Shown here: piece after piece, positions 4,604 to 55,990 of the stretch | Position numbering within the stretch: the first letter of the stretch is position 1 | Layout of the letters: every line of letters begins with the position of its first letter | Origin: Deltaproteobacteria bacterium | GTDB lineage: Bacteria; UBA10199; JADFYH01 | Direction: 5' to 3' | Assembly (NCBI GenBank): GCA_015233135.1 | Contig: JADFYH010000003.1 | Span: forward strand, 43,021 to 107,020 | DNA: 64,000 bases | Translations under genes and position numbers: made by a program | The notes under the pieces: generated by a model | Database searches by the model: none | The model's input: only the letters and a program-made list of their open reading frames with translations | What the model was told of the DNA's origin: nothing

Positions 4604-5145
4604 GACCTCAATTAAAACAAATCCTCCTTCAGAATTCTTATGAACAACGCGAAGTAAAACTTGCTTCGGGACGGCTTTCTAATTTTTATTTTGATGGAAA
4701 ACAAACTGCCCTTTCTGCAGAAGGTGCTTTTTTGATTGGAGAATGTTTTTTTGATCTCTTTCAAAAATCAGGTCGTCGGATTCAGGCCGTGGGGGGTCCT
4801 ACTTTAGGGGCGGATCCTATTGTGAGTGCGGTGAGTTTGATTTCTTATCTAAAAAATTCCCCGCTGCCCGCTTTTATTATTCGTAAAGAACCCAAGAAAC
4901 ACGGTACTGCAAAATGGATAGAAGGGGACAAAAATTTAAAGCTAGGGATGCAAGTGGCTTTAGTGGAAGACGTGGTGACCTCAGGTGGATCCATATTGAA
5001 AGCCGCTGAAAGAGTGGAAGAAGCCGGATATTTTGTGAGTTTAATGGCTACGATTGTCGATCGTGAAGAAGGAGGACGGGAGGCGATTGAAGCAAAAGGC
5101 TATCGCTTGTTGTCTTTGTTTACGAAGACGGAATTGCTTTCATAA
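4600..5145 (+). CDS. pyrE: Orotate phosphoribosyltransferase
   Basis: ORF 4549..5145. Start taken at the ATG at 4600, overlapping the batE stop as ATGA. PRPP-binding motif VALVEDVVTSGGS and typical PyrE length and sequence. Confidence 0.85.
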   Translation: MRPQLKQILLQNSYEQREVKLASGRLSNFYFDGKQTALSAEGAFLIGECFFDLFQKSGRRIQAVGGPTLGADPIVSAVSLISYLKNSPLPAFIIRKEPKKHGTAKWIEGDKNLKLGMQVALVEDVVTSGGSILKAAERVEEAGYFVSLMATIVDREEGGREAIEAKGYRLLSLFTKTELLS

Positions 5146-11343: not shown

Positions 11344-11447
11344 CCTCCCCTTAAGCTAAGGGGAGGTTAGGAGGGGTTATGATTCAATTGTATCCAATTG
11401 TTCGTAACGCCCCCTGACCCCCTCTTACCCTAAGAGGGGGAATTTGT
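11344..11447. repeat. Composite GC-rich palindromic repeat: two hairpin units, each followed by a (t)tatgattcaa(a)tt motif.
   Basis: Hairpin 1 is cctccccttaagctaaggggagg. Hairpin 2 is ccccctgaccccctcttaccctaagaggggg. The same two-hairpin unit recurs at 36693..36812. Confidence 0.7.
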
Positions 11448-11897
11448 ATGATTCAAATCCCTCTCCAACATCTAAAGCCCGAATTGTCTCAGCAAATGCC
11501 GAAGTACATGACTGCAGGGTCAGCAGGAATGGACCTTTGCGCGGCCATAGAAAATCCTGTCGTCTTAAAACCTTTTGAGAGAAAACTCATTTCCACCGGT
11601 TTGGCGATTGCACTCCCTCCAGGCTACGAGGCCCAGATTCGGCCTCGCAGTGGTTTGGCCATTAAGAAAGGTATTACCTGCCTCAATTCTCCAGGCACCA
11701 TTGATAGCGATTATCGCGGTGAAATTGGTGTGATCTTGATTAATTTAGGGTCTGAAGAAGTGTTGATTGAAAAAGGCGAGCGCATCGCCCAGATGATTAT
11801 TTCTCGTTATGAACAAATTGGGTGGCAGGAAGTGGCCGAATTGCCTAGCTCTGAGCGGGGGAGTGGGGGCTTCGGTTCGACTGGAACTCGTTCATAA
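11448..11897 (+). CDS. dut: dUTP diphosphatase
   Basis: Motifs AGMDL, RSGLA and [10 protein letters not shown]. 149 aa. Confidence 0.9.
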
Positions 11898-14146: not shown

Positions 14147-15223
14147 ATGAGTTCAGAGAAAATAAAACATCTTCGGGAAGAAATCGATCAGCTTGACCAA
14201 TCCTTTTTAAAGCTGCTTTCTCAGCGTGGTGAGAAAGTGATGCAAATTGGCCAGCTGAAGAAGGCCGCTCAAAGCCGCTTTCACGTGCCGGAGCGCGAGG
14301 CGAAGATCTTTCAGAAACTCAAAAAAAATAATCCGGGGCCCTATAAAGATGAAGCGATTTTAAGTATTTTTCGTGAAATCCTGTCTGCCTCTCTGGCTTT
14401 AGAATCTCCCTTGCAAGTGGCTTTTTTGGGGCCCGAGGCCACCTTCACGCATTTGGCGGCCATTCAACGCTTTGGGCTGTCGGCGCAATTTGTTCCTCAA
14501 GAAACGATTGCCCAGGTGTTTCAAGCGGTTCAGCAGAAAAAAGTAAATTACGGAATTGTGCCCATCGAAAATTCCACCGAGGGGGTGGTGAATCACACGC
14601 TCGATTTGTTTGTAGATTTTCCTCTGAAAATTTGCGGTGAAATTAAAATTGCGATTGTGCACAATCTGCTTTCTCAAGAAAGCGACTTGCGTAAAATCAA
14701 AAAAGTTTATTCTCATCCCCATGCCTTGGCGCAATGCCGGCAGTGGCTTACGAAGCATTTGCCTCAAGTGAAAATAGTGGATGTGGCCAGCACCGCAAAA
14801 GCCGCGGAAATAGTGAGCGGAGAAAAACAGGTGGCGGCTATTGCCTCCGAATATGCCGCCAGCAAATACAAATTAAAGGTGTTGTGTAAAAACATTGAAG
14901 ATCATCCCAATAACTTCACCCGATTTGTGGTGATCGGAGAAGAAGGCTGCGGGCCTTCGGGTCACGATAAAACCTCGCTGATGTTTTCTACCAAAGATGA
15001 AGTGGGGGTGCTGTTTAAATTGCTGGCCCCCTTTGCAAAAGAAAAAATAAATCTCACCAAAATAGAATCTCGTCCTCTGAAGGGGCGTGCCTGGGAGTAT
15101 ATCTTTTTTGTCGATTTAGATGGGCATCAGGAAGATCCCAAAGTGCGGCGTGCTATTGAGACGATGGCACAGAGTTGCTCTTTTTTACGGGTGCTGGGGT
15201 CTTATCCGAAGAGTGAGGTTTAG
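14147..15223 (+). CDS. pheA: Bifunctional chorismate mutase / prephenate dehydratase (P-protein) with a C-terminal ACT domain.
   Basis: RBS aaaaggag. N-terminal CM helix (LREEIDQLDQ), PDT domain and ACT domain. 358 aa. Confidence 0.9.
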   Translation: MSSEKIKHLREEIDQLDQSFLKLLSQRGEKVMQIGQLKKAAQSRFHVPEREAKIFQKLKKNNPGPYKDEAILSIFREILSASLALESPLQVAFLGPEATFTHLAAIQRFGLSAQFVPQETIAQVFQAVQQKKVNYGIVPIENSTEGVVNHTLDLFVDFPLKICGEIKIAIVHNLLSQESDLRKIKKVYSHPHALAQCRQWLTKHLPQVKIVDVASTAKAAEIVSGEKQVAAIASEYAASKYKLKVLCKNIEDHPNNFTRFVVIGEEGCGPSGHDKTSLMFSTKDEVGVLFKLLAPFAKEKINLTKIESRPLKGRAWEYIFFVDLDGHQEDPKVRRAIETMAQSCSFLRVLGSYPKSEV

Positions 15224-15263
15224 AAGAATAATGGCTATTTTGAAGATGAAAGTTCCTAAAATT

Positions 15264-15755
15264 AAAAGTGGGACTTGTTTAAATTTTAAAAGTGGACTGA
15301 AAACGAATTCCCCTCTCCCCTTGGGGGAGAGGGTAGGGTGAGGGGTAAAAATGAGTACTTTGATTGACCTTTCAAAATCTCTCAGGAAAAACTCAACTCA
15401 TACAGAAAATGATCTTTGGTATTATTTAAGATCAAGGCGATTAAATGGATTGAAATTTAGAAGACAGCATCCTCTTGGTCTATACATTGTAGATTTTATA
15501 TGTCTTGAGAAGCGCATTGTTATTGAATTGGACGGTGGGCAACATGCTGCAGCTCAAAGTGAAGGTAAGAAACGAGATGAATGGTTGAAAGCAGAAGGAT
15601 ACCAAGTATTACATTTTTGGAACTCTGAATTTTATGAAAATCGTGAAGGGGTGTTGAGTCAAATTTTAGCAGCAAGTGAATGAACCCCTCACCCTGCCCT
15701 CTCCCCCAGGGGGAGAGGGGATTATTAAAAGTCCACTTTTAAATTTAGGTAACAC
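15264..15755 (+). mobile_element. Compact cassette: a DUF559 endonuclease gene between inverted terminal repeats. The inner TIRs are GC-rich palindrome units of about 36 nt; the outer TIRs are AT-rich aaaagtggact segments.
   Basis: Left unit, 15310..15345, is cccctctccccttgggggagagggtagggtgagggg. Right unit, 15685..15720, is cccctcaccctgccctctcccccagggggagagggg, a near-perfect reverse complement. The outer segment taaattttaaaagtggact (15280..15298) is the reverse complement of aaaagtccacttttaaattta (15727..15747). Confidence 0.6.
15351..15683 (+). CDS. DUF559 domain protein (Vsr / PD-(D/E)xK-like endonuclease fold).
   Basis: Characteristic LWYYLRSRRLNGLKFRRQHPLGLYIVDFICLEKRIVIELDGGQH...VLHFWNSE. 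A degenerate second copy lies at 36883..37080. Confidence 0.8.
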   Translation: MSTLIDLSKSLRKNSTHTENDLWYYLRSRRLNGLKFRRQHPLGLYIVDFICLEKRIVIELDGGQHAAAQSEGKKRDEWLKAEGYQVLHFWNSEFYENREGVLSQILAASE

Positions 15756-15771: not shown

Positions 15772-16674
15772 TTAATTAAAATCCCCAGGCACCGGAGCTT
15801 CAATTCTTACCTCTTTGCCATCCGCCATCTGAAAAGAAAGCCTGTGGGCATGCAAAAGTATTCGGGTCGATTGCAATGGGCTTCCATACAAATCATCTCC
15901 CAAAATGGGATGTCCTTTTGACGCAAGATGGACGCGGATTTGGTGGGTGCGGCCTGTGAGAGGTCTGGCCTCAATCAAGGTCACTTTTTCGTTTGCTTCT
16001 AGAACTTTAAACTCCGTTTTACTCCAGCGGGAATTTTTTTGTTCCTTTTCATAAAGGCGATAAACATTGAGGGGCAATTTTCGAAAATCGCGCTGAAGGT
16101 ACCCTTCTACAATCCATTCTTTTTCTGCCGCTGCGGGGGAGACGAGGGCCAGGTAAGATTTTTTGATCTTCTGATCATGAAATTGTTTCATGAAATAAGC
16201 TTCGGTTTTTTTATCATAGGCGAATAAAACGATTCCGCTGGTTTGCCTATCCAAACGATGCAGGGCATTTAAATTTTTCAAGCCCGTGAAGTCACGAACT
16301 TGTTCCTGCAGGCCAAAACGAGTACTGGCGCGGCTTCCCTGTACGGGTAACCAGGCGGGTTTGTTCACGGCCAAAAGGCCATTCTCTTTCAATAAAATAT
16401 GCTGTGAAGAAATAGGAATGGCTTCTGGTTCTCTTGAAAAAAGATAAAGTTCGATTTCGGAGTTTGCTTTAAATGGATGTTTGAGATCTTGTTCATTCAG
16501 TCTTTTTTTGTTGAGATAACATCCTCCATGAAAAAGTGCTTTTTGAATATTTTCTGTAGCAAGATTGAGTTGCTGGGAGAGATAAGGCAGCAAGTTGCGA
16601 CCTGAAATTGTTTTTTCAAGGGTGAAGGAATAATACTTAACTGGTGGGTTGTAGCGGTAGGCGTCCGTTGTCAT
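15772..16674 (-). CDS. RluA-family pseudouridine synthase
   Basis: Catalytic motif HRLDRQTSGIVLFA and an S4-like N-terminus. ORF runs to 16713; the likely start is the ATG at 16674 (MTTDAYRY), overlapping the ABC-F stop as ATGA. Confidence 0.8.
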   Translation of the reverse strand: MTTDAYRYNPPVKYYSFTLEKTISGRNLLPYLSQQLNLATENIQKALFHGGCYLNKKRLNEQDLKHPFKANSEIELYLFSREPEAIPISSQHILLKENGLLAVNKPAWLPVQGSRASTRFGLQEQVRDFTGLKNLNALHRLDRQTSGIVLFAYDKKTEAYFMKQFHDQKIKKSYLALVSPAAAEKEWIVEGYLQRDFRKLPLNVYRLYEKEQKNSRWSKTEFKVLEANEKVTLIEARPLTGRTHQIRVHLASKGHPILGDDLYGSPLQSTRILLHAHRLSFQMADGKEVRIEAPVPGDFN

Positions 16675-18185
16675 TTTTGTCTTTTCTTCTTTCCACCCTC
16701 TTCCTCTTCCCAACCTATTTTTTCTAAAAACTCATCGTAGTTACCCAAGAAAAGTTCGGCTCCTCCTTCACGAAAGACAATCAGTTTGGTGGCGATGGCT
16801 CGCAAAATCATTTCGCTGTGAGTGACAATCATCATGGCGCCTTTGAAATTGCTAATGCTGTCTACCAGGGCATCAATCGATTGCATGTCCAAATGGTTGG
16901 TGGGTTCGTCCAGAAAGAGCAAATTGGCAGGAGCCGCCAGAATTTTTCCCAACAAAACGCGACTGCGTTCGCCTCCGGAAAGCACGCCAATACGCTTTTC
17001 AGCGGCATCGCCTTCAAACATCATCACCCCGCAAATGCCTCGCACTTGAGTGCGACTGAGGCTGGAGTTGACGGAACCAATTTCATCTTCCACGGTTGTT
17101 TTAAGATCGAGGCGATTGATATTGGTTTGTCCAAAATAGCCCAGTTTCATTTCGGGATGCGAATAGAGGCTGCCCCCCGTTGCTTGAAATTCACCAGCCA
17201 GCACATTCAGCAAAGTCGATTTCCCTTTTCCATTTTTCCCGATGATGGCAATGCGATCGTCACTTTTTATAGAAAAACTTAAATTCTGGATGAGCGGAGT
17301 TTTTGCTTCGTAGTGAAAAGATAAATCGTTCACCTCCATCACTGTTTTAGCGGCAAAGGGGGCGTAATGAAAATCGAAATCGAGGCTTTCGATATTTTGC
17401 AGGGCATCTTTGCTGCCCATTTTTTCTAATTGTCGAATACGCGATTGAACGGAAGCGGCTTTGGAGGCCTGGGCGCGAAAGCGGTTGATGAAGGTTTCGA
17501 TTTCTTTTCGTTTTTTGCCCTCGTTGACCCGATTTTTTTCGTAGAGTTCTTCGTCTTGCTCAATTTGGGTATAAAGTTTTTCGGTGGGGCCAGTGACTCT
17601 TTTTAATTTTTGTCGGTGAATGGCGGCCGTGTGTGTGGTGACGCTGTCCATAAATTCACGGTCATGCGAAATGAGGATGAGCTCATCTTTCCAGTTTCTC
17701 AAAAAGCGGGTGATCCAGCGCACGGAGACAATATCCAAATAGTTCGTGGGTTCGTCCAAAAGCAGAAGATTGGGTTCGGAGACCAACAGCTTCGCCAGAT
17801 TGAGACGAATTTGATAGCCACCCGAAAACTCATAAGGGCTGCGATCCATGTCTTCTTGGGTGAAGCCCAGCCCAAACAAAATTGCCTCTACTTTGTAGTA
17901 ACAATCTTCTTCTCCAACCGGCAATCCCAGTGCCCCTTCTAGCAACACCGTGGGTTGGGTAAAATTCAGATGCTGGGCAAGATGGCCTACACGGTAATTG
18001 CGGGGAAAGGTGATGCTGCCTTCATCCGGCAATTCTTCTTTCAAAACAAGTCTGAATAACGTGGATTTTCCGTGGCCATTTCGACCCACCAAACCCAGTC
18101 TTTCTCCGCGACTGAGTTGAAGGTCGAGATCTTCAAAAAGAATTTGGGAGCCGTAAGTCTTTGTCAGTTTGTTGATTTGCAGCAT
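16671..18185 (-). CDS. ABC-F family ATPase: two ABC cassettes, no TM domain.
   Basis: Two Walker A motifs (GRNGHGKST, GKNGKGKST) and two signature motifs (LSGGYQIRL, LSGGERSRV). Inter-domain linker present. 504 aa. Confidence 0.9.
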   Translation of the reverse strand: MLQINKLTKTYGSQILFEDLDLQLSRGERLGLVGRNGHGKSTLFRLVLKEELPDEGSITFPRNYRVGHLAQHLNFTQPTVLLEGALGLPVGEEDCYYKVEAILFGLGFTQEDMDRSPYEFSGGYQIRLNLAKLLVSEPNLLLLDEPTNYLDIVSVRWITRFLRNWKDELILISHDREFMDSVTTHTAAIHRQKLKRVTGPTEKLYTQIEQDEELYEKNRVNEGKKRKEIETFINRFRAQASKAASVQSRIRQLEKMGSKDALQNIESLDFDFHYAPFAAKTVMEVNDLSFHYEAKTPLIQNLSFSIKSDDRIAIIGKNGKGKSTLLNVLAGEFQATGGSLYSHPEMKLGYFGQTNINRLDLKTTVEDEIGSVNSSLSRTQVRGICGVMMFEGDAAEKRIGVLSGGERSRVLLGKILAAPANLLFLDEPTNHLDMQSIDALVDSISNFKGAMMIVTHSEMILRAIATKLIVFREGGAELFLGNYDEFLEKIGWEEEEGGKKKRQK

Positions 18186-18373: not shown

Positions 18374-21300
18374 ATGAATTCAAACTCCAGCATCCTTCTT
18401 GGCACTCTTCGTCCCGATTTATTAAAAGACGAAACCTTGGCCGAACTTTTTCGTGCCTCCGCCAAGACGCATCTTTCTAAGACAGCACTGATCTGCAGAG
18501 ACCAGGCTCTCAGCTATGCAGAGTTAGATCGCTGGAGCGATGCCGTGGCTGCCTCTCTTGCCAGCCAGGGCATTGGCCGAGGAGCTAGTGTAGGCGTTTG
18601 GTGGCCTCGGGGTTTAGAATTGCATGTCATTATTTTGGCTATAGTTAAATCGGGAGCGGCGTATGTGCCTCTTGATTTTGAAATGCCGGCTGAGCGGGTA
18701 GTGACGGTATTATCCGAAGTAAAGGCTGCGGCGTGTTTTAGTCCAAAAACTCTGGAGCTTAACTGTCCCACGTTGTCTGTTCCTCCTTTAATGGGCCCAG
18801 AAAATACTAAAATCCCCCTTCATCCCCCTTTTTCAAAGGGGGAGATTGGTCCTCAGTTCCAAGATTGGGCCTATGTCTTATACACCTCGGGGAGCACGGG
18901 AAAGCCCAAAGGAATCCCCATTACGCACAGTCAAATTTGTCATCTGGTTCGAGCAGAACAAAGCGTATTGGGGCTTCGAAGTGAAGACAAAGTGTATCAG
19001 GGTTTTTCGGTTTCTTTTGACATGTGGTGTGAAGAAACCTGGATCAGCTATCTAGTAGGTGCCACACTTTTTGTGGCCGATGCAGAGATGGCAAAGTCTA
19101 TTGATGAGTTGAGTGAGGTCTTGAGCAACAACAACATCACGGTGCTGCATGCCGTGCCCAGCTTACTGGCGGTGATCGACGAGCATATTCCTTCTTTGCG
19201 CTTGGTGAATGCAGGAGGCGAGGCCTGCACTGCTTCGGTACTTGCGCGTTGGGGCAAGCCTCCTCTCCAATTTTTTAATACCTATGGCCCCACCGAAACC
19301 ACAGTCACTGCAACAATTGCGGCCCTCAAAAGTGGAGAGGCCATCACCATCGGCCAACCTTTACCCAATTATGATTTGGCAATCGTCGATGAAGCGTTAA
19401 ATCCGCTCCCTTATGGCCAACGCGGAGAATTGGTCATTTCTGGCCCGGGAGTAGGACAGGGTTATATTAATCTCGTGGATTTGACGCGAGAAAAATTCGT
19501 AAAAAAACCGGCGTTGTTGGCAGCGATGCGGGGGGAAGTGATTTATCGCAGTGGGGATGCGGCGCTGATGGATGCCGAACAGAATATTTATATTCAAGGC
19601 CGTTTTGACGATCAAATCAAACTCAGAGGCTATCGCATTGAGCTGGGGGAAATCGAAGTGCGATTGAATCAGCTCCCTGGCATCTCGGCCGCTGCCGTGG
19701 CTGTTAAAAAAGACAAACAGGGTAACGATCACCTGGTGGCTTATTTAAGGAGTGAAAATCAGAAAAAAATTGAAGAAACTGAACTGCGTAACTTGCTGGC
19801 AAAGGAGTTGCCGGTCTACATGCTGCCTAGCCTTTTGGTGCAACTGAATGATTTGCCGCGCCTGGCCAGTGGAAAGATAGATCGCAAAGTTCTTCCGACC
19901 CCGGAGGCGCTGCTGCACCTTTCCGAAGAGACACAAGTGCCCCTGGATAAAAATGCCCCTTTGCGAGAGCGCGTCGTGGCGGTGTTGCAGAAGGTTTTTC
20001 CAAATCGAAGTTTGGATTTAAGCCAGGATTTTTTTGACGACTTGGGTGGGCATTCGCTTTTAGCCGCGGGATTTGTTTCCCGGATGAGAAATGAAGCGGG
20101 AGTGGAGCAAGCCTCTATTCGAGATGTCTATTTAAATCGTCCTTTGGCAGCCCTTGTCGAAAAATGGGAGACCAAGACCGAAACAAAGTCTGCGGTTCAA
20201 GACTTTCAAAAAGTGCCTGCCTGGCGCTATCTCCTGTGTGGCTTGGGGCAATCCGTTGCCTTACTTTTTATTTTTGCCTTGTTCGCGGTGCAAATTTTTC
20301 TGCCTTATCTCGCATACTATTATGTGCTGCAAGAATCTTCGAGTCATCTGTGGAGCATTGTCACTGCCCTTTTTTCCTTTTGTTTTATCCCTCCTTTTTT
20401 TTCATCGCTTACCATTGTCAGCAAATGGTTGGTGCTTGGGCGTGTGCGGGCAGGGGATTATCCGCTTTGGGGGGGGTACTATTTTCGTTGGTGGTTTGTG
20501 AAGACCATGCAGCGCTTGACGCCTATTGAATACATCAATGGCACTCCACTTTATGCGATCTATTTGCGACTACTGGGGGTTAAAATTGCTTCGGATGCGC
20601 AACTCAGTGCCTTCACCATTGCGGCAGAAGATTTGGTGACGATAGGAAAAGACGTCAGCATCAGCTCGGGCGCGGTCATGAACAATGCCGTGGTAGAAGG
20701 AGGGCTTTTAAAATTACGGGCCATCCATATTGCCGACCACGCTTATATAGGCACCAGCGCGGTGATTGCGGGAGGCTGTCGCATCGAAGAATGGGGGGAG
20801 CTGAAAGATCTGAGTTTTCTTCGTCCCAACACGGTGCTCAAAACCCGCGAAGTTTGGGGCGGGAGCCCTGCCATTCATCAGACCACAAAATCTCCAGAAG
20901 AATTGCCTCAGCCTTTGGAGGTTTCCCCGGCCACCCTCAAAAAATATAGCAAGGTGTACTTGCTCTTACTTTTGATTTTTCCTTTCACTATTCTGCTTCC
21001 TTTACTGCCCAGTATTATTGCCTTGAATGCCCTGGATAACTACGCAGCCGATTATGATTTTTCCTATTTGGTTCTTACTCCCTTGCTCAGTTTGAGCTAC
21101 ATCCTTCTCTTTGCCCTGGAGGCGATTTTTTTCACCCGCCTGCTACAGCATGGTCTGCAACCCGGTACTTATCCTGTCTATAGCAGAACCTATTTGAAAA
21201 AATGGTTTTCCGATCAAATCATGACCTTGTCTTTGTTTGTGCTGCATCCTGCTTATGCCACGGTCTTTGTGTCGACTTTGTATCGTGCCCTAGGGGCAAA

Positions 21301-27087: not shown

Positions 27088-27951
27088 ATGTTCAGTCGTT
27101 TTTCGCGAATCAAATGGGGTTTTTGTTTTATCCTCCTCCTTTTAGCTTTTTCTCGTTTTTATGTCCCCATGGAAAAAACTCAAAATCGTTTTTTGGTTTC
27201 CATTTTTAATCCTCTCCTGAAAAGCAGTCATTTTTTTTCAGAACATTTTATTTCTCTTAAAAACTGGTTTTTTTGCTGGGGTGATATTTGTCAGGAAAAT
27301 AAAAATCTAAAGGATCAGCTACAAAGTAAATCCCTGCGCTTAATGGAGCTAGAAAGTATTCTTCAAACTCAAAAAAATTGGGATAAAATTCAAAACTTTT
27401 CTCTCTTTTCTACTTATGAAAAAATTCCGGCAAAGGTGTTGGCTTGCAACCCCAGCGATCTTATTCAAACGCTTCGAATCAATGTGGGGAAAAAACAATC
27501 GATTGCCCTCGGTGATCCGGTCATCGTTCCCGAAGGTTTGGTCGGGATAGTGAGCGAGGTGTATGAAGACAGCTCGGTGGTAATGTTGGTCACCGACACT
27601 CATTTTCAGGCGAGTGCTTCTCTAAAAAACAAAGTGCAGAAAGGTTTAATGAAGGGCTTTCATAAAAAGATGGATTTTGATCGCTACTTCGCGATGAATC
27701 GTTTGGAATATTTGCAAAATTCGTCGGATATTCAAGAAGGGGATGAGGCGCAAACTTCGGGCCTCGATGGTTTTTTTCCGACAGGCATCCCTCTAGGAAA
27801 AATCTCTAAGGTTTTGCGCGATGAAAAGAATTCTTTTTTGAATGCGGAGGTGATTCCTGCGGTGGATTTTTTTAGTTTGGATGGGGTACTGGTTTTGAGA
27901 AGGAGTATAGAGATCGGATTAAATTATAAACTTGAGTTCCGCAGATTTTAA
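27088..27951 (+). CDS. mreC: Rod shape-determining protein MreC
   Basis: N-terminal TM, a coiled-coil region, then the beta-rich domain GDPVIVPEGLVGIV. Sits between mreB and mreD. Confidence 0.85.
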   Translation: MFSRFSRIKWGFCFILLLLAFSRFYVPMEKTQNRFLVSIFNPLLKSSHFFSEHFISLKNWFFCWGDICQENKNLKDQLQSKSLRLMELESILQTQKNWDKIQNFSLFSTYEKIPAKVLACNPSDLIQTLRINVGKKQSIALGDPVIVPEGLVGIVSEVYEDSSVVMLVTDTHFQASASLKNKVQKGLMKGFHKKMDFDRYFAMNRLEYLQNSSDIQEGDEAQTSGLDGFFPTGIPLGKISKVLRDEKNSFLNAEVIPAVDFFSLDGVLVLRRSIEIGLNYKLEFRRF

Positions 27952-27995
27952 GAATCATTTTTTGCTCATTCTTGGCAAGTACCCATCTATAAAGC

Positions 27996-28100
27996 ATTTC
28001 CCCTCTCCCCTTGAGGGAGAGGGTTAGGGTGAGGGGTATTTCTAGTGCACTCAGGATCACCCTCTCTCTGACTCTCTCCCCTCAAGGGAGAGAGGACTTT
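27996..28100. repeat. Two adjacent GC-rich palindromic repeat units between mreC and mreD.
   Basis: 28000..28035 is cccctctccccttgagggagagggttagggtgagggg. A degenerate unit at 28061..28097 reads ...tctcccctcaagggagagagg. Both fall within the 5' extension of ORF 28011, which is therefore probably not coding there. Confidence 0.7.
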
Positions 28101-28184
28101 TCAGAGTGGCTTCTTACTAAAATCTGCGGAACTCAAGTTTATGTGTTACAGCCAATACATGGAATACGTGAATGTATAGGATAT

Positions 28185-36612: not shown

Positions 36613-36637
36613 TCATTTATTCCCCTCTCCCCTTGAG
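36613..36637. repeat. Left half of a GC-rich palindromic repeat unit, split by the insertion of the MITE-like element.
   Basis: cccctctccccttgag. It continues at 36839..36867 as ccccttgagggagagggcagggtgagggg, leaving a 9-bp direct duplication ccccttgag on both sides of the insert. Confidence 0.6.
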
Positions 36638-36838
36638 CATAGGTATCTACACATCTCAGCAAACTATGGGTTTTATTGACTCTGCTGTTCCTCCCCTTAA
36701 GCTAAGGGGAGGTTAGGAGGGGTTATGGAAGATCTTGCTGAACTCAAAAATACTGTAATTTGCACGGTTTTCCATAACTCCCCCAACCCCCTCTTAGCTT
36801 AAGAGGGGGCAATACCAAAAGATGTGTAGATACCTATG
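36638..36838. mobile_element. MITE-like 201-bp non-coding element with perfect 19-bp terminal inverted repeats and a 9-bp target-site duplication, nested inside the terminal repeat of the decayed DUF559 cassette.
   Basis: Left TIR cataggtatctacacatct (36638..36656). Right TIR agatgtgtagatacctatg (36820..36838). Flanking ccccttgag at 36629..36637 and 36839..36847. The interior carries the two-hairpin unit also seen at 11344..11447. Confidence 0.6.
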
Positions 36839-36882
36839 CCCCTTGAGGGAGAGGGCAGGGTGAGGGGTTCATTCACTTGCTT

Positions 36883-37080
36883 CCAATATCTGACTCAACC
36901 TAGCTCAACCACAATGCGCTTTTCCAAACATACGAAATCCACAATATAAGCTCCAAGAATAGGTTGTCTTCTAAATTTCAACCCCTTTAAACGCCTGGAT
37001 CTCAAATAGTACCAAAGATCATTTCCTGTATTTGTACTTTCCTTTCTGAGTAGTTTTGAAATGCCAACAAGTACACCCAT
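36883..37080 (-). pseudogene. DUF559 endonuclease pseudogene: an internal deletion of about 100 nt removes the conserved core and creates a premature stop.
   Basis: Minus-strand ORF 36895..37080 encodes MGVLVGISKLLRKESTNTGNDLWYYLRSRRLKGLKFRRQPILGAYIVDFVCLEKRIVVELG*, about 80% identical to the first 61 aa of the 15351 protein. The downstream remnant ...gaagcaagtgaatga matches the 3' end of the intact copy. Confidence 0.7.
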
Positions 37081-37088
37081 TTATTTCT

Positions 37089-37125
37089 CCCCTCACCCAG
37101 ACCCTCTCCCCCAAGGGGAGAGGGG
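37089..37125. repeat. GC-rich palindromic repeat unit, here the upstream terminal repeat of the decayed DUF559 cassette.
   Basis: cccctcacccagaccctctcccccaaggggagagggg. Its reverse complement matches the left TIR of the intact cassette, including the spacing to the ATG. Confidence 0.7.
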
Positions 37126-54133: not shown

Positions 54134-55945
54134 ATGTCTTCCAAAATTATACAGCTCCCTCCCGAGATAGCCGAAAAAATTGCGGCGGGCGAAGTGGTCG
54201 AGCGGCCTTTGTCAGTCGTCAAAGAACTGGTCGAAAATAGTGTAGACGCCGGGGCCACGCGAATTGAGGTTTTTCTGGAAGAGGGGGGGAAGAAGCTCAT
54301 CCGGGTTCAGGACGATGGCATGGGTATGAATCCCAGCGAAATGCGGCTGGCCTTGCAAAGGCATGCAACCTCCAAAGTAAAAAGTCTTGAAGATCTTTTT
54401 GCTATTTCTACCCTGGGTTTTCGGGGAGAGGCCCTGCCTTCCCTGGCGGCCATCTCAAAATTCTGCTTACAAAGCCGCTCTCGAGAAGAAAACTCTTTTG
54501 CCTACGAGCTTTATCTGGAAGGGGGTAAATCGATTCACGAACGCGAAGTGGGGCATCCTTTTGGGACCACGATAGAAATCAGCGAACTTTTTTATAACAC
54601 CCCGGCACGACTGAAATTTCTCAAATCGAGTGAAACAGAATGGAACCATATCGAAGAATTCATCACCGCGATGGCCTTGGCTCATCCCGAAGTGCAATGG
54701 GTGGTACGTCATCAGGATAAAGAAAAAATTCGATATGTTCAAAAAGGGCTGCAAGATCGAATGCTCGAGGTGTGGGGGAAAGAGGTTTTTAGCGGATTTT
54801 ATCCCTTGTTGCAGGAACAGGGCGATTACAGTCTGCAAGGCTACATTGCGCATCCCAATCTTTCCAAATCACAGGCGCGCGGCCTGTATGTGTTTGTGAA
54901 TGGGCGTTGGGTAAAAGACCGTTTACTGAATCATGCGGTATCGACCGGCTATCGCAATTTACTGATGCAACATCAGTATCCGCTGGTGGTTTTATTTCTG
55001 AATCTGCCTGCTTCCGAGGTGGATGTGAATGTGCATCCTACCAAACGCGAAGTGCGTTTTGTGAAGACGCAGTTTGTGCACCATTTTATTTCGGAGGCAA
55101 TTCACGCGGAGTTGGTGAAGGCGCCGTGGGTGGAGAAGCAGTTGCCAGTAGATTCCTTTATCCCCCCTGAATCCCCCCTTAATAAGGGGGGGTGGGGGGG
55201 TGTTTCCAATTGGAAAAAAGAAAATTTCGATTCTCTTTCTTCCCAACGAAAAGCACAAAGTGAACTCGAGTGTTTGACCCCTCACCCTAACCCTCTCCCC
55301 CAAGGGGAGAGGGGACTGGGACGGGGAGTGGGGGAGCAAGTAGCAAAAGCCGGCGTGCTCCCCTTCGCCTCGCTCAAAATCATCGGCCAACTCAAGCTCA
55401 CCTACATTTTATGCGAGTCCGAACATCATCTCGTCCTCATTGATCAACACGCCGCCCACGAGCGTTTGGGGTATGAACAGATCAAAAAATCTTACGAAAA
55501 ACGAGAGCTCAAAAGCCAGAATCTTCTGGTGCCCGAACAGCTAAACCTGAAAGAATCTGAGCTGGAGCTGATTCGCCCTTATCAGGAAAAATTTGAAGAG
55601 CTGGGTTTGAGGGTTGAAGAATTTGGTAGAGATTGCCTGCTCGTGAAGGCCGTGCCAGAAATTTTGGGAAAGCTGGAGGTTAAAAAGTTGATTGAAAATA
55701 TTTTGGAAGATCTGAAAAATTTTCCTCAAAGTCGAAGGCTGGAAGAAAAGCTGGATCATCTCTTTGCAACCATGGCCTGTCACCGGCAGGTGCGGGCAGG
55801 GGATAAGCTGGCGAGGGAAGAAATGCAGGCCCTGATTTCTCAACTCGATGCCGAAGCGGTGCTCTATCACTGTCCCCACGGGCGTCCGCTGATGGTGCAG
55901 GTGTCTTATGCGGAGATTGAGAAGTGGTTTAAGAGGGTGCTGTAA
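54134..55945 (+). CDS. mutL: DNA mismatch repair protein MutL, with two palindromic-repeat insertions in-frame in the inter-domain linker.
   Basis: N-terminal GHKL ATPase: AIKELVENSVDAGAT-like VKELVENSVDAGATRIEV and DDGMGM. C-terminal dimerisation domain: IIGQLKLTYILCESEHHLVLIDQHAAHERL. The linker (around 55162..55340) encodes PPESPLNKGGWGG and PHPNPLPQGERGLGRGVG from the repeats. Confidence 0.9.
   Translation: MSSKIIQLPPEIAEKIAAGEVVERPLSVVKELVENSVDAGATRIEVFLEEGGKKLIRVQDDGMGMNPSEMRLALQRHATSKVKSLEDLFAISTLGFRGEALPSLAAISKFCLQSRSREENSFAYELYLEGGKSIHEREVGHPFGTTIEISELFYNTPARLKFLKSSETEWNHIEEFITAMALAHPEVQWVVRHQDKEKIRYVQKGLQDRMLEVWGKEVFSGFYPLLQEQGDYSLQGYIAHPNLSKSQARGLYVFVNGRWVKDRLLNHAVSTGYRNLLMQHQYPLVVLFLNLPASEVDVNVHPTKREVRFVKTQFVHHFISEAIHAELVKAPWVEKQLPVDSFIPPESPLNKGGWGGVSNWKKENFDSLSSQRKAQSELECLTPHPNPLPQGERGLGRGVGEQVAKAGVLPFASLKIIGQLKLTYILCESEHHLVLIDQHAAHERLGYEQIKKSYEKRELKSQNLLVPEQLNLKESELELIRPYQEKFEELGLRVEEFGRDCLLVKAVPEILGKLEVKKLIENILEDLKNFPQSRRLEEKLDHLFATMACHRQVRAGDKLAREEMQALISQLDAEAVLYHCPHGRPLMVQVSYAEIEKWFKRVL
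55162..55205. repeat. cccccTGA...cccccttaataaggggg-type palindromic repeat inside the mutL coding sequence.
   Basis: tcccccctgaatccccccttaataagggggggtggggggg. A sister copy lies at 55946..55990, just after the mutL stop. Confidence 0.65.
55278..55314. repeat. GC-rich palindromic repeat unit (the same family as the DUF559 cassette TIR) inside the mutL coding sequence.
   Basis: cccctcaccctaaccctctcccccaaggggagagggg, translated in frame as TPHPNPLPQGERG. Confidence 0.7.
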
Positions 55946-55990
55946 TCCCCCCAACCCCCCTTAATAAGGGGGAGAAATTCTGGGGGTAAA
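55946..55990. repeat. cccccttaataaggggg-type palindromic repeat in the mutL-miaA intergenic gap.
   Basis: tccccccaaccccccttaataagggggag. Confidence 0.65.

Follow-up and report, generated by a model that had tools for sequence, protein, structure and literature searches.

The BoxC repeat, also called the PIT element or TM, is an orphan repeat family that has been known since the early 1990s. Its units have been described as BoxC, PIT or TM (TMECO) elements (Hoyne & Maher, 2000, 2002; Holder et al., 2015, PMC4666352), and the formation of an intrastrand class II triplex by the E. coli unit was demonstrated in vitro by CD and NMR (PMC4666352). The main survey of the family reported no mobility function near the units and found them always in intergenic positions, and a comparison of 56 E. 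coli strains placed most BoxC units at fixed loci (PMC4666352). BoxC units stall polymerases in vitro and have been linked with local instability, and in earlier work they displayed neither promoter nor terminator activity.

An enzyme gene between structured repeats is known from the REP/RAYT system (REPtron), in which a small enzyme gene lies between inverted GC-rich structured repeats and many gene-less copies of the repeat are found elsewhere. RAYT is an HUH Y1 enzyme (IS200/IS605 TnpA-like), and REP is a simple imperfect palindrome. In Rickettsia, palindromic elements (RPE) of short length are reported (Ogata et al., 2000) to insert into protein-coding genes in frame and to be translated. 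Homing endonucleases of the EDxHD type (I-Bth0305I) already use a Vsr-like fold (PMC3239194, PMC3384342), and a survey of PD-(D/E)XK proteins places DUF559 with Vsr and 3R3P (I-Bth0305I). The DUF559 family comprises 22,846 cluster representatives at 50% identity (E ≤ 0.001), and for proteins of the type analyzed here no biochemical activity or substrate was found in the literature that mentions DUF559.

Here, we analyzed a DUF559 gene in a stretch of 64 kb of bacterial DNA (the window). We interpret the locus, with moderate confidence, as a selfish DNA cassette of ~0.5 kb, in which a DUF559/YcjD-family nuclease gene is placed between inverted BoxC units and whose decay leaves BoxC repeats behind. 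A preliminary description, made from the sequence of the window, had placed the 110-aa gene between two inverted repeat units, and the open reading frame is indeed bordered by such arms on both sides (Table 1). The units had been given as ~36 nt long with 2-3 mismatches; their inverted pairing holds, while the arms measure 38 nt and are 95% complementary. Each arm comprises a hairpin of 10-12 bp, CCCCTCTCCCC-N3-GGGGAGAGGG, and on the side of the gene a G-rich tail, (T/C)AGGGTGAGGGG. The DNA hairpin of the left unit was calculated at -11.4 kcal/mol by folding that models hairpins only and not triplexes. The third strand of this unit doubles as a Shine-Dalgarno sequence, with the ATG 5 nt further on. 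Alignment of the cassette flanks also recovered the AT-rich inverted segments that had been noted outside the units, 15252-15276 pairing with 15729-15753 and 15280-15298 with 15725-15747, and the whole flank alignment covers 67 nt with a score of 83. The left outer segment is probably the left terminus of the element in the lineage of the window. The right outer segment is kept in a related, 75%-identical cassette (L084), which sits beside an unrelated gene in a different genomic context, and the similarity stops at ~15754.

The encoded protein matches Pfam DUF559 (PF04480) with an E-value of 1.2e-39 and 135 bits (cutoff 20.6), its only other Pfam match being a weak one to MTES_1575. Since its score against the NCBIfam YcjD equivalog model (113.7 bits) is below the curated cutoff of 218, we consider it a member of the family and not an equivalog. 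The sole match in a PDB sequence search was 3HRL from N. gonorrhoeae (E = 2.5e-24), the annotation of which goes no further than 'endonuclease-like'; this protein and E. coli YcjD (b1289) have their protein subfamily in common with the window protein. The family-invariant residues E19, W23, F36, Q39, D48, E59, D61, G62, H65, and R75 are all present, and the acidic and histidine residues are invariant across all 81 domains, in-frame copies included (D72 in 80 of 81). By analogy with Vsr, putative catalytic roles can be assigned to the conserved E, D, H, and R residues. A defence-system identity was rejected because PADLOC models gave no match to the window protein, and phage carriage was rejected on the basis of 3 good matches among 2.9 million viral contigs and weak PHROGs matches.

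A strict unit scan of the 64 kb identified 17 units and one split unit, compared with 1 match in total in 20 block shuffles, and the units represent at least seven sequence variants beside a single intact nuclease gene. All of the copies previously listed as solo exist, but those at 28001, 55278, and 59796 are halves of inverted pairs, and the one at 37089 belongs to a second cassette. The decayed state of this second cassette, which had been placed at 36613..37125, was confirmed by tblastn and blastn, a truncated DUF559 gene lying between its units. Residues 1-60 of the gene (37080-36901, minus strand) are 75% identical; past the internal deletion, the end of the open reading frame and the unit follow at 36899-36839, and the gene is short of ~126 nt. 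The inverted pair in mutL is translated in frame within the interdomain linker of the protein (ORF 54134-55945), and the end of its spacer resembles the 3' end of DUF559 (...KAQSE..TPHPNPLPQGERG), a likeness that is only suggestive of an in-frame cassette remnant.

Table 1. Coordinates of the cassettes, unit pairs and solo units in the window
Feature	Position	Strand	Remarks
Left outer AT-rich inverted segment	15252..15298	.	Two tandem copies of aaaagtgg(g)act
Left BoxC/TM unit	15309..15346	+	Pyrimidine arm CCCCTCTCCCC, loop TTG, purine arm GGGGAGAGGG, linker TA, mirror third strand GGGTGAGGGG
DUF559 (YcjD-family, Vsr-fold) endonuclease ORF	15351..15683	+	110 aa, apparently intact
Right BoxC/TM unit, inverted copy	15684..15721	-	Begins right after the stop codon; third strand aimed back at the gene
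Right outer AT-rich inverted segment	15722..15753	.	Pairs with the left outer segment
BoxC/TM unit of second cassette	36621..36867	+	Hairpin loop split by a 203-bp MITE
MITE in second-cassette unit	36637-36839		20-bp perfect terminal inverted repeats, 8-bp target duplication CCCCTTGA
Internally deleted DUF559 gene	36869..37080	-	Residues 1-60 joined to the last ~10 codons; tblastn, blastn
BoxC/TM unit upstream of deleted gene	37089..37125	-	Third strand toward the gene
Inverted unit pair in mutL	55160..55314	.	Units 55171-55202 (+) and 55278-55313 (-), third strands inward
Gene-less inverted pair	11344..11440	.	Third strands inward; two other unit variants, CCTCCCCTTA... and CCCCCTCTTA...
Gene-less inverted pair	28001..28094	.	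Third strands inward; 24 nt between units (28036-28059)
Gene-less inverted pair	59736..59831	.	Third strands inward
Solo unit, A-rich variant	18811..18843	-	Mirror rule kept; strict unit scan
Solo unit	48505..48540	-	Strict unit scan
Short solo unit at the end of mutL	55945..55972	-	Strict unit scan

The repeat, taken in the preliminary description for one of the genome's own, turned out to be BoxC/PIT/TM, which is known from E. coli and over 260 further genomes (PMC4666352). Like BoxC/TM, the window units are ~35-37 nt long and are composed of a pyrimidine arm, a loop, a purine arm, a linker of 2-3 nt, and a mirror third strand. They nearly match the published E. coli (TMECO) consensus of 34-37 nt, CCCTCGCCCCTTTGGGGAGAGGGTTAGGGTGAGGGG, and inverted pairs occur in both; compared by eye, the unit at 55278-55313 (reverse complement CCCTCTCCCCTTGGGGGAGAGGGTTAGGGTGAGGGG) resembles TMECO no. 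5 CCCTCGCCCCCTTGGGGAGAGGGTTAGGGTGAGGGG. Hairpin stems of 10-12 bp are present at 15309-15335, at 15695-15721, and in 15 other units. In contrast to the published units, those described here bracket a nuclease gene and lie in frame in mutL, HrpA, and other genes. No publication tying DUF559, ycjD, or PF04480 to BoxC or triplex repeats was found in the openly accessible literature searched.

The association between DUF559 and the repeat was assessed in the nearest 80 homologues of the window protein. Inverted flanks were detected at 64 of 78 homologue loci and at 6 of 780 control placements, which excludes chance as an explanation; with a score of at least 40, the respective numbers were 53 of 78 and 0 of 780. 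According to strict triplex-unit criteria, the third strands point inward at 43 of 80 loci and outward at 1, with a background density of 0.10 unit/kb. Units are a few to ~60 nt away from the domain, and in 22 of 31 free-standing copies the start codon lies -6 to +8 nt from the end of the tail. The association that had been suspected from one locus is thus tight and oriented, and it is widespread, since the homologue loci come from many phyla. No second recurrent cargo between inverted unit pairs was found in 635 kb of flanking DNA, where longer-range unit pairs bracket ordinary host genes only. Six copies at the HsdS site, from four phyla, share a special unit type and show 74% identity among themselves, compared with 56% to the rest, which suggests that units and gene lineage move together. 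Such tracking of the HsdS site could simply be due to entire hsdS genes being transferred horizontally.

About one quarter of the cassettes lie in frame inside conserved proteins, an observation that was absent from the preliminary description. The reading frame stays open for more than 150 nt beyond the domain at 21 of 80 loci, and the hosts confirmed by Pfam are HrpA, MetG, a class-I aminoacyl-tRNA synthetase, Mfd, HsdS, PrmA, and a PolyA/CCA enzyme, further in-frame hosts being more HsdS, DNA methyltransferase, and helicase proteins. Pfam reported no intein domains in the host proteins. The clearest indication of movement of the cassette as one unit comes from these insertions into housekeeping genes. 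Presence/absence polymorphism of the cassette, which had been proposed as a comparison across strains, was found both at the window locus between pheA and rluA and at a site in HrpA. At the locus of a relative (L096), the synteny of four genes is shared with the window and a 50-nt gap between pheA and rluA replaces the cassette. Close relatives display four states at the HrpA site, i.e., empty, solo unit, unit pair, and full cassette; solo units lie in frame in HrpA P0136/L093, where relatives have nothing.

The arrangement had been likened to REP/RAYT. The likeness holds for the layout, as inverted units flank the gene and gene-less copies are numerous, but not for membership in that system: the enzyme belongs by its fold to the Vsr/PD-(D/E)XK-like proteins and not to the HUH/Y1 transposases, the repeat is a triplex motif with an obligatory third mirror strand, and the cassette inserts in frame into genes. 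The cassette resembles REP/RAYT in layout only. A strict REP/RAYT-type mechanism, in which DUF559 would excise and insert single BoxC units in trans and the gene would lie between its own substrates, with the solo units as products, appears unlikely to us. Such a mechanism would fit the excess of units over intact genes (17:1 in the window and 23:1 in E. coli K-12, which has a single DUF559 gene) and the solo units in HrpA, but one sequence-specific enzyme is hard to square with the number of unit variants in a single window. This reading overlaps partly with that of a selfish cassette.

The situation in E. coli speaks against mobilization of the repeats in trans as well. ycjD is missing from 38% of complete E. 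coli genomes and is single-copy where present, and further matches, which can be ascribed to the BoxC unit contained in the query, were still obtained in the sampled genomes without ycjD. Given that the gene is single-copy or absent, that sampled genomes lacking it still yielded BoxC-type matches, and that the published units are mostly at fixed, conserved loci, the element spreads episodically at best, and the gene is not required for solo units to persist. Mobilization of solo repeats in trans by the DUF559 nuclease is not supported. The ycjD locus itself resembles the window cassette in that the gene runs into a degenerate unit, with a full BoxC unit ~170 nt downstream, but its upstream unit has been lost, and the eefRABCD operon lies at this place in other lineages. 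Since strains lacking ycjD carry eefRABCD there, with no unit left, the place does not qualify as a clean empty site and yields no evidence of spread, and the E. coli pan-genome was rejected as a test of mobility.

A host function, with DUF559 as a repair nuclease that processes BoxC triplexes or hairpins and with flanking units that are cis-regulatory or simply accumulated, would not involve a selfish element at all. The cis-regulatory roles proposed in this case are those of a ribosome-binding site and of mRNA-stabilizing or terminating hairpins. The Vsr repair-nuclease type of fold, the position of the left tail as a Shine-Dalgarno sequence, and the polymerase stalling and local instability tied to BoxC units are consistent with such a role. 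However, a housekeeping gene is not expected to occur in frame, together with both of its units, in essential genes whose sites are empty in close relatives; moreover, the gene decays readily and is absent from 38% of E. coli genomes, and the units lacked promoter and terminator activity in the earlier work. We therefore consider a host function quite improbable.

The filled/empty polymorphism at conserved housekeeping-gene sites (HrpA, pheA-rluA) and the lineages that follow the insertion site are features which the cassette shares with EDxHD and free-standing homing endonuclease genes, and a Vsr-related catalytic fold in a selfish element may be a further one. It differs from them in that it has no intron, intein, or NUMOD/HTH domain (110 aa; no Rfam intron match), carries structured inverted repeats at both ends, and is translated within the host protein when in frame. 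Inverted ends are also common to DDE-type IS and MITEs, whereas target-site duplication gave no signal in the cassette, the mean longest common flank substring being 4.28 for true and 4.22 for mismatched pairs. RPE are likewise short palindromic repeats in frame inside protein-coding genes, but they are not known to encode a protein or to have an enzyme of their own, and they are unrelated in sequence and structure, whereas here a nuclease gene accompanies the repeats.

Programmed inversion of the DUF559 segment by the repeats, switching its expression on and off, would agree with an independent screen in which predicted inversion targets were enriched for 'DUF559 domain-containing protein' and 'Endonuclease domain-containing protein', with odds ratios of 14.3 and 9.6, respectively (PMC9881135). 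That screen keys on inverted repeats, however, which the cassettes provide regardless. No recombinase gene adjoins the window cassette, inversion would break the host frame in the in-frame copies, and units in the window also occur solo and in gene-less pairs, all of which makes an invertible segment very improbable.

The third strand follows a triad rule. In 91 distinct units, a purine-arm G is opposite a third-strand G in 651 of 672 positions, and a purine-arm A is opposite A in 114, T in 47, G in 2, and C in 0 cases, i.e., A or T in 161 of 163. The units thus obey the C-G.G and T-A.A/T triads, as BoxC/TM does. The turn before the third strand measures 2-3 nt in 81 of the 91 units, and mirror alignment of the third strand was better than direct alignment by 50:5. 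Because asymmetric units are mirror and not direct copies, the tail was rejected as a direct repeat or as an alternative Watson-Crick partner of the pyrimidine arm. The rule agrees with the class II triplex of the E. coli unit, and we infer that the window units may form such a triplex too. A G-quadruplex was rejected as a general constraint, since variants poor in G-tracts retain the mirror pattern. A control of DUF559 translation by transcript units that switch between hairpin and G-quadruplex or between alternative hairpins, for which the frequent four G-tracts of purine arm plus tail, the overlap of the tail with the Shine-Dalgarno sequence, and a weak likeness to Rfam Whalefall-1 could be put forward, is highly unlikely, as variants with two G3 tracts (L024, L063; window 28060, 18811) keep the mirror A/T pattern, the mirror relation rules out Watson-Crick pairing of tail and pyrimidine arm in asymmetric units, and units lie far from gene starts on either strand. 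The Rfam scan of the window gave no match at the gathering threshold, Whalefall-1 being a sub-threshold look-alike (17.5 bits against a threshold of 37).

According to the selfish-cassette reading that we prefer, gain and loss affect the cassette as a whole and leave no target-site duplication. The cassette is found in intergenic DNA and, where length and frame permit, in frame in genes, where it is translated through. Decay proceeds through internal deletion and probably yields gene-less inverted pairs and solo units, so that many BoxC repeats would be non-autonomous relics. The nuclease may drive the spread by nicking or cutting a site set by the empty target or by the repeat, either folded or as a duplex, and host recombination or repair synthesis would next copy the cassette in a homing-like manner; polymerase stalling at the triplex may help to bound the copied segment. 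Since the HrpA and pheA-rluA sites are free of units when empty, simple homing into repeat pairs that are already in place does not suffice as an explanation. Some findings count against a selfish cassette: the window protein is a catalytic domain alone and has no separate DNA-binding domain, 14 of 78 homologue loci have no clear inverted flanks, and no recent bursts were seen among paralogues within one genome, which are 62-75% identical.

A cassette made of three parts that is found across many phyla, even in frame in essential genes, is probably an unrecognized kind of selfish element. More tentatively, BoxC/PIT/TM could descend, as non-autonomous derivatives, from mobile elements of a new class, the sole protein of which would be a Vsr-fold nickase of ~110 aa that recognizes the triplex or the hairpin-triplex junction at the element ends and leaves no target duplication. 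Both the ends and the gene of such an element can be translated, which would allow it to colonize essential genes in frame with neither intron nor intein.

The link described here gives the repeat a candidate enzyme and DUF559 a candidate substrate. It accounts for the DUF559 and 'endonuclease domain' genes flagged by the inverted-repeat screen (PMC9881135), and also for the PSPxGRGxGVR / PLPxGEG peptide inserts and the internal nuclease domains in housekeeping proteins. The hypothesis lends itself to direct tests with E. coli YcjD, the crystallized Neisseria protein, and synthetic BoxC oligonucleotides, and a triplex-specific nuclease, if it exists, might be a useful reagent. The cassette may represent a third route, beside introns and inteins, by which a nuclease gene comes to reside inside essential genes and, if the more tentative reading of a triplex-recognizing nickase is true, it would be the first system of enzyme and element in nature to be based on triplex DNA.

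The preliminary description, made by a model from the sequence alone, had proposed a REP/RAYT-like arrangement of a DUF559 gene and inverted units of the genome's GC-rich palindromic repeat. The gene was indeed found between such units, and the AT-rich inverted segments reported outside them were confirmed. Each arm of this cassette, i.e., the DUF559 gene with its two inverted units, consists of a 10-12 bp hairpin followed by a G-rich tail toward the gene, and the hairpins fold at -11.4 and -11.7 kcal/mol (as DNA). Including the outer repeats, the cassette takes up almost the entire gap between pheA and rluA. The encoded protein is a member of the DUF559/YcjD family, and its best relative of solved structure is the uncharacterized 'endonuclease-like protein' 3HRL of N. 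gonorrhoeae (E=2.5e-24).

Cassette features and neighboring genes in the window, and host proteins carrying DUF559 in frame
Feature	Coordinates	Strand	Description
DUF559 ORF	15351-15683	+	110 aa; PF04480, E=1.2e-39
Inverted arms enclosing the ORF	15309-15346 and 15684-15721		38 nt, 95% complementary
Outer AT-rich inverted repeat beyond the arms	15252-15298 vs 15722-15753
pheA	14147-15223		Convergent neighbor of the cassette
PseudoU_synth_2 gene, labeled rluA in this analysis	15772-16713	-	Convergent neighbor of the cassette
Internally deleted cassette	36621-37125		Residues 1-60 and ORF end
HrpA			Insert between DEAD and Helicase_C domains
MetG			Insert ahead of tRNA-binding domain
Class-I aminoacyl-tRNA synthetase			In-frame DUF559
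Mfd			In-frame DUF559
PrmA			In-frame DUF559
PolyA/CCA nucleotidyltransferase			In-frame DUF559
Type I HsdS			Insert in central conserved region

A strict scan of the 64-kb window detected 17 units and one split unit, and 20 shuffles combined gave one match. The tail is the mirror image of the 3' arm and not a direct copy of it. In 91 distinct units, taken both from the window and from the homologue loci, a purine-arm G lies opposite a tail G at 651 of 672 positions, and a purine-arm A is found opposite A in 114 cases, T in 47, G in two and C in none. Mirror alignment of the tail with the purine arm outscored direct alignment 50:5, and the turn measures 2-3 nt in 81 of the 91 units. Judged by sequence, this pattern is the rule of a purine-motif intramolecular triplex (C-G.G, T-A.A, T-A.T), and it is obeyed by every one of the at least seven unit sequence variants in the window. 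A repeat of this kind was named BoxC, then 'potential intrastrand triplex' (PIT) element and finally TM/TMECO motif (Holder et al., 2015; PMC4666352). E. coli K-12 contains 23 copies and five inverted pairs, G/C-rich motifs of TM type occur in >260 genomes, and the TM single strand gives a stable triplex in vitro, whereas no mobility function was found near the motif (PMC4666352). Since the window units match the E. coli consensus almost exactly, what had been taken for the genome's own palindrome is instead a known and widespread repeat, and in all its sequence-level features it belongs to BoxC/PIT/TM. In E. coli pair 1+2 the third strands (tails) face inward across a 16-nt spacer. The Rfam family Whalefall-1 (RF01762) scores 17.5 bits against 15311-15345 and 15685-15719 (gathering score 37); its consensus, a hairpin UCuCuCC-UuGG-GGaGaGA followed by a 24-nt insert and AGgGuGAGGAC, resembles a BoxC unit whose second loop is extended, and the family may be a DNA repeat of the BoxC kind rather than an RNA.

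The association between DUF559 and the repeat is general. We analyzed 80 loci of the closest DUF559 homologues (45-57% identical) on one-genome-per-species contigs from Gallionellaceae, Pseudomonas, Nitrospirota, Binatia, Omnitrophota, Rickettsiales, Dehalococcoidia, Saccharibacteria and other taxa. A pyrimidine/purine hairpin was present within 150 nt upstream in 68 and within 250 nt downstream in 67 of the 80 loci, against a background of 0.38 per kb in these loci. When the upstream flank was aligned to the reverse complement of the downstream flank, 64 of 78 loci reached a score of at least 30, compared with 6 of 780 random placements, and 53 of 78 reached at least 40, compared with 0 of 780. 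The nearest strict units (background 0.10 per kb) were arranged with third strands inward (+,-) at 43 of the 80 loci, (+,none) at 11, (none,-) at 6 and in other orientations at 3; 17 loci had none, some of them because the ~35-nt second loop of HsdS-associated units escapes the strict scan. The left and right units are alike within one cassette, and unit sequences vary between loci. Target-site duplications were looked for at the homologue cassettes and none were found. Of 31 free-standing copies, 22 have their first in-frame start codon at -6 to +8 nt relative to where the G-rich tail ends; the tail therefore acts as Shine-Dalgarno sequence, as in the window (GGTGAGGGGTAAAAATG). The putative nuclease residues E19, D48, E59, D61, H65 and R75 show no variation, and 80 of 81 domains have D72, in-frame copies included. 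Two Gallionella cassettes (L001, ~4900-4960; L010, ~1513-1570) hold a second small palindromic element (ataaccagcgact...agtcgaatggctag) inside the third strand of the left unit.

Presence/absence polymorphism of the cassette, for which the preliminary description had suggested a search, was found at two sites. The metagenomic relative L096 (PheA 81% identical) shares the gene order VKOR/DsbA, pheA, rluA and ABC-F with the window, and its pheA-rluA gap is 50 nt long, with neither unit nor DUF559; a second relative, L097, likewise has no cassette after pheA. At locus L084, a 75% identical cassette matches through the right unit and the AT-rich segment outside it as far as ...tttaggtaac, beyond which its sequence continues into an unrelated gene. 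In HrpA, the insertion site is covered by 99 close homologues; nearly all of them read HF-xxAP-V[IL]xVSGR or hold a few extra residues, and these near-empty alleles include the closest relatives (88-90% identity) of the filled allele L064. One homologue carries a full cassette of 156 aa, one a single unit in frame (+36 nt) and one a gene-less pair. A recurrent composite of two outward-facing units with a conserved ~26-nt spacer (ctaa...gcca[ga]atag) was seen at L094 (HrpA site) and L069 (~2252-2362); it is gene-less in one HrpA allele and lies directly upstream of a DUF559 cassette in another, a second pair geometry unexplained by the cassette model.

The DUF559 frame runs >150 nt past the domain at 21 of 80 loci and is open across both units in 28 of 67 cassettes, and translation and Pfam scans showed the embedded domain flanked by translated units (PSPxGRGxGVR... 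and ...PLPxGEG). Searching a library of 1.84 billion representatives yielded 22,846 family members at E<=0.001; by our own count, the best 150 of these include about 35 proteins of at least 300 aa in which DUF559 is internal, and five proteins with two or three DUF559 stretches. Ten of the long proteins were scanned against Pfam: six were HsdS, one was a PriA-like helicase, two belonged to DNA methyltransferase types and one was mixed. Predicted proteins with two or three domains (P0241, P0242, P0253, P0287, P0317), e.g., an Eco57I-type restriction-modification methylase with two, imply multiple cassettes per reading frame.

DUF559 similarity tracks the insertion site and not the host. The six DUF559 copies at the HsdS site come from four phyla; identity is 74% among them versus 56% to the rest, they are mutual four nearest neighbors, and they share one special unit type. 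The same pattern might stem from complete hsdS genes having moved by horizontal transfer. This site recurs at L002, L006, L009, L011, L017 and L036 and in the proteins P0259, P0286, P0314, P0277, P0300 and P0322; the unit variant found there has a second loop of ~35 nt (ACTCCCCCC-ttga-GGGGGGAGT ... GGTGGGGGG), and the HsdS peptide around the insert is, by eye, near-identical over the four phyla.

In the window, units lie in frame in the mutL linker (54134-55945), which contradicts the published statement that TM units are 'always intergenic' (PMC4666352), and the mutL pair is probably a strongly reduced in-frame cassette remnant. This inverted pair occupies 55160-55202 and 55278-55313 of the MutL interdomain linker (...PPESPLNKGGWGG...TPHPNPLPQGERG...), and the end of its spacer is like the DUF559 3' end. 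The further copies named in the preliminary description were all recovered, its second, decayed cassette being a real, internally deleted copy. Besides this copy and the mutL remnant, the window contains one intact cassette, three inward-facing pairs that enclose no gene, and three units standing alone, and these forms can be read as a series of decay stages.

A MITE of 203 bp (36637-36839), bounded by perfect 20-bp terminal inverted repeats (GCATAGGTATCTACACATCT) and flanked by an 8-bp target duplication (CCCCTTGA), sits precisely in the loop of a BoxC hairpin. Inside the MITE is a further inward-facing pair, composed of two other unit variants and of the type at 11344-11440; the MITE appears to be a separate element that makes duplications and either has the units as its targets or is built from them. 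A near-perfect ~21-nt inverted repeat (27930-27955 / 28115-28140; aacttgagttccgcagatttt / aaaatctgcggaactcaagtt) encloses the gene-less pair at 28001-28094, and a related tctgcagattttaagaatg is found next to the 59736 pair (near 59700-59725), which suggests that palindromic elements are nested or composite here. In the 11344/11405 pair (region 11380-11460) the spacer starts with ATGATTCAATTG, and the gene right after the pair starts with ATGATTCAAATC, a short duplication of the 5' end of this gene that echoes the ~70-nt permease 5'-end duplications beside the Gallionella cassettes L010, L014 and L019.

In E. coli, the DUF559-family gene ycjD is single-copy and missing from 38% of genomes, and sampled genomes without it still gave extra BoxC-type matches. 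In lineages lacking ycjD the site is occupied by the efflux operon eefRABCD, for which a published study inferred at least two independent replacements. At this site (L081, K-12 NC_000913.3 1351000-1351830; L082; L083) ycjD reads into a degenerate unit; after the gene come a duplicate of part of its own 3' end and, upstream of fabI, a full BoxC unit. Among the cassettes themselves, paralogues in one genome are 62-75% identical, with no sign of recent bursts.

Taken together, these sequence comparisons suggest that the cassette is gained or lost as a unit and is probably a selfish element with a predicted nuclease and with inverted repeats, probably triplex-forming, as ends, most likely moving by a homing-like mechanism. 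The nuclease would nick or cut at a structure or sequence set by the repeat or the empty site, repair would then copy the cassette, and polymerase arrest at the triplex might bound the copied tract. Because units are absent from the empty HrpA and pheA-rluA sites, homing into pre-existing pairs is not the sole route, and the model is limited by the lack of recent bursts and by a ycjD that is single-copy and often absent, also from sampled genomes that gave extra BoxC-type matches. A strict RAYT-like enzyme mobilizing single units in trans, a view that overlaps with ours, is possible but unsupported. If the nuclease instead served host repair and its flanks were cis-regulatory, this would agree with the fold and the Shine-Dalgarno role, but not with insertions into essential genes and the ready decay. 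The sole hint of a programmed invertible switch is that DUF559 was flagged by an inverted-repeat screen (PMC9881135), which would pick up these cassettes regardless. RNA-level or G-quadruplex control by the units is contradicted by G-tract-poor units that retain the mirror pattern.

The likeness to REP/RAYT holds for the layout and not for membership, as the cassette has no HUH transposase. It behaves like a free-standing homing endonuclease gene but is not one, having neither intron or intein nor a separate DNA-binding domain, and its arrangement lacks a target duplication. The in-frame copies recall the Rickettsia RPEs, in-frame palindromic insertions for which we know of no enzyme. In the openly searchable literature we found no link between DUF559 and BoxC or triplex repeats. 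The cassette resembles a known kind of element, in which a selfish nuclease gene is combined with structured terminal repeats and gives rise to non-autonomous derivatives, and there is a real chance that it represents a new class.
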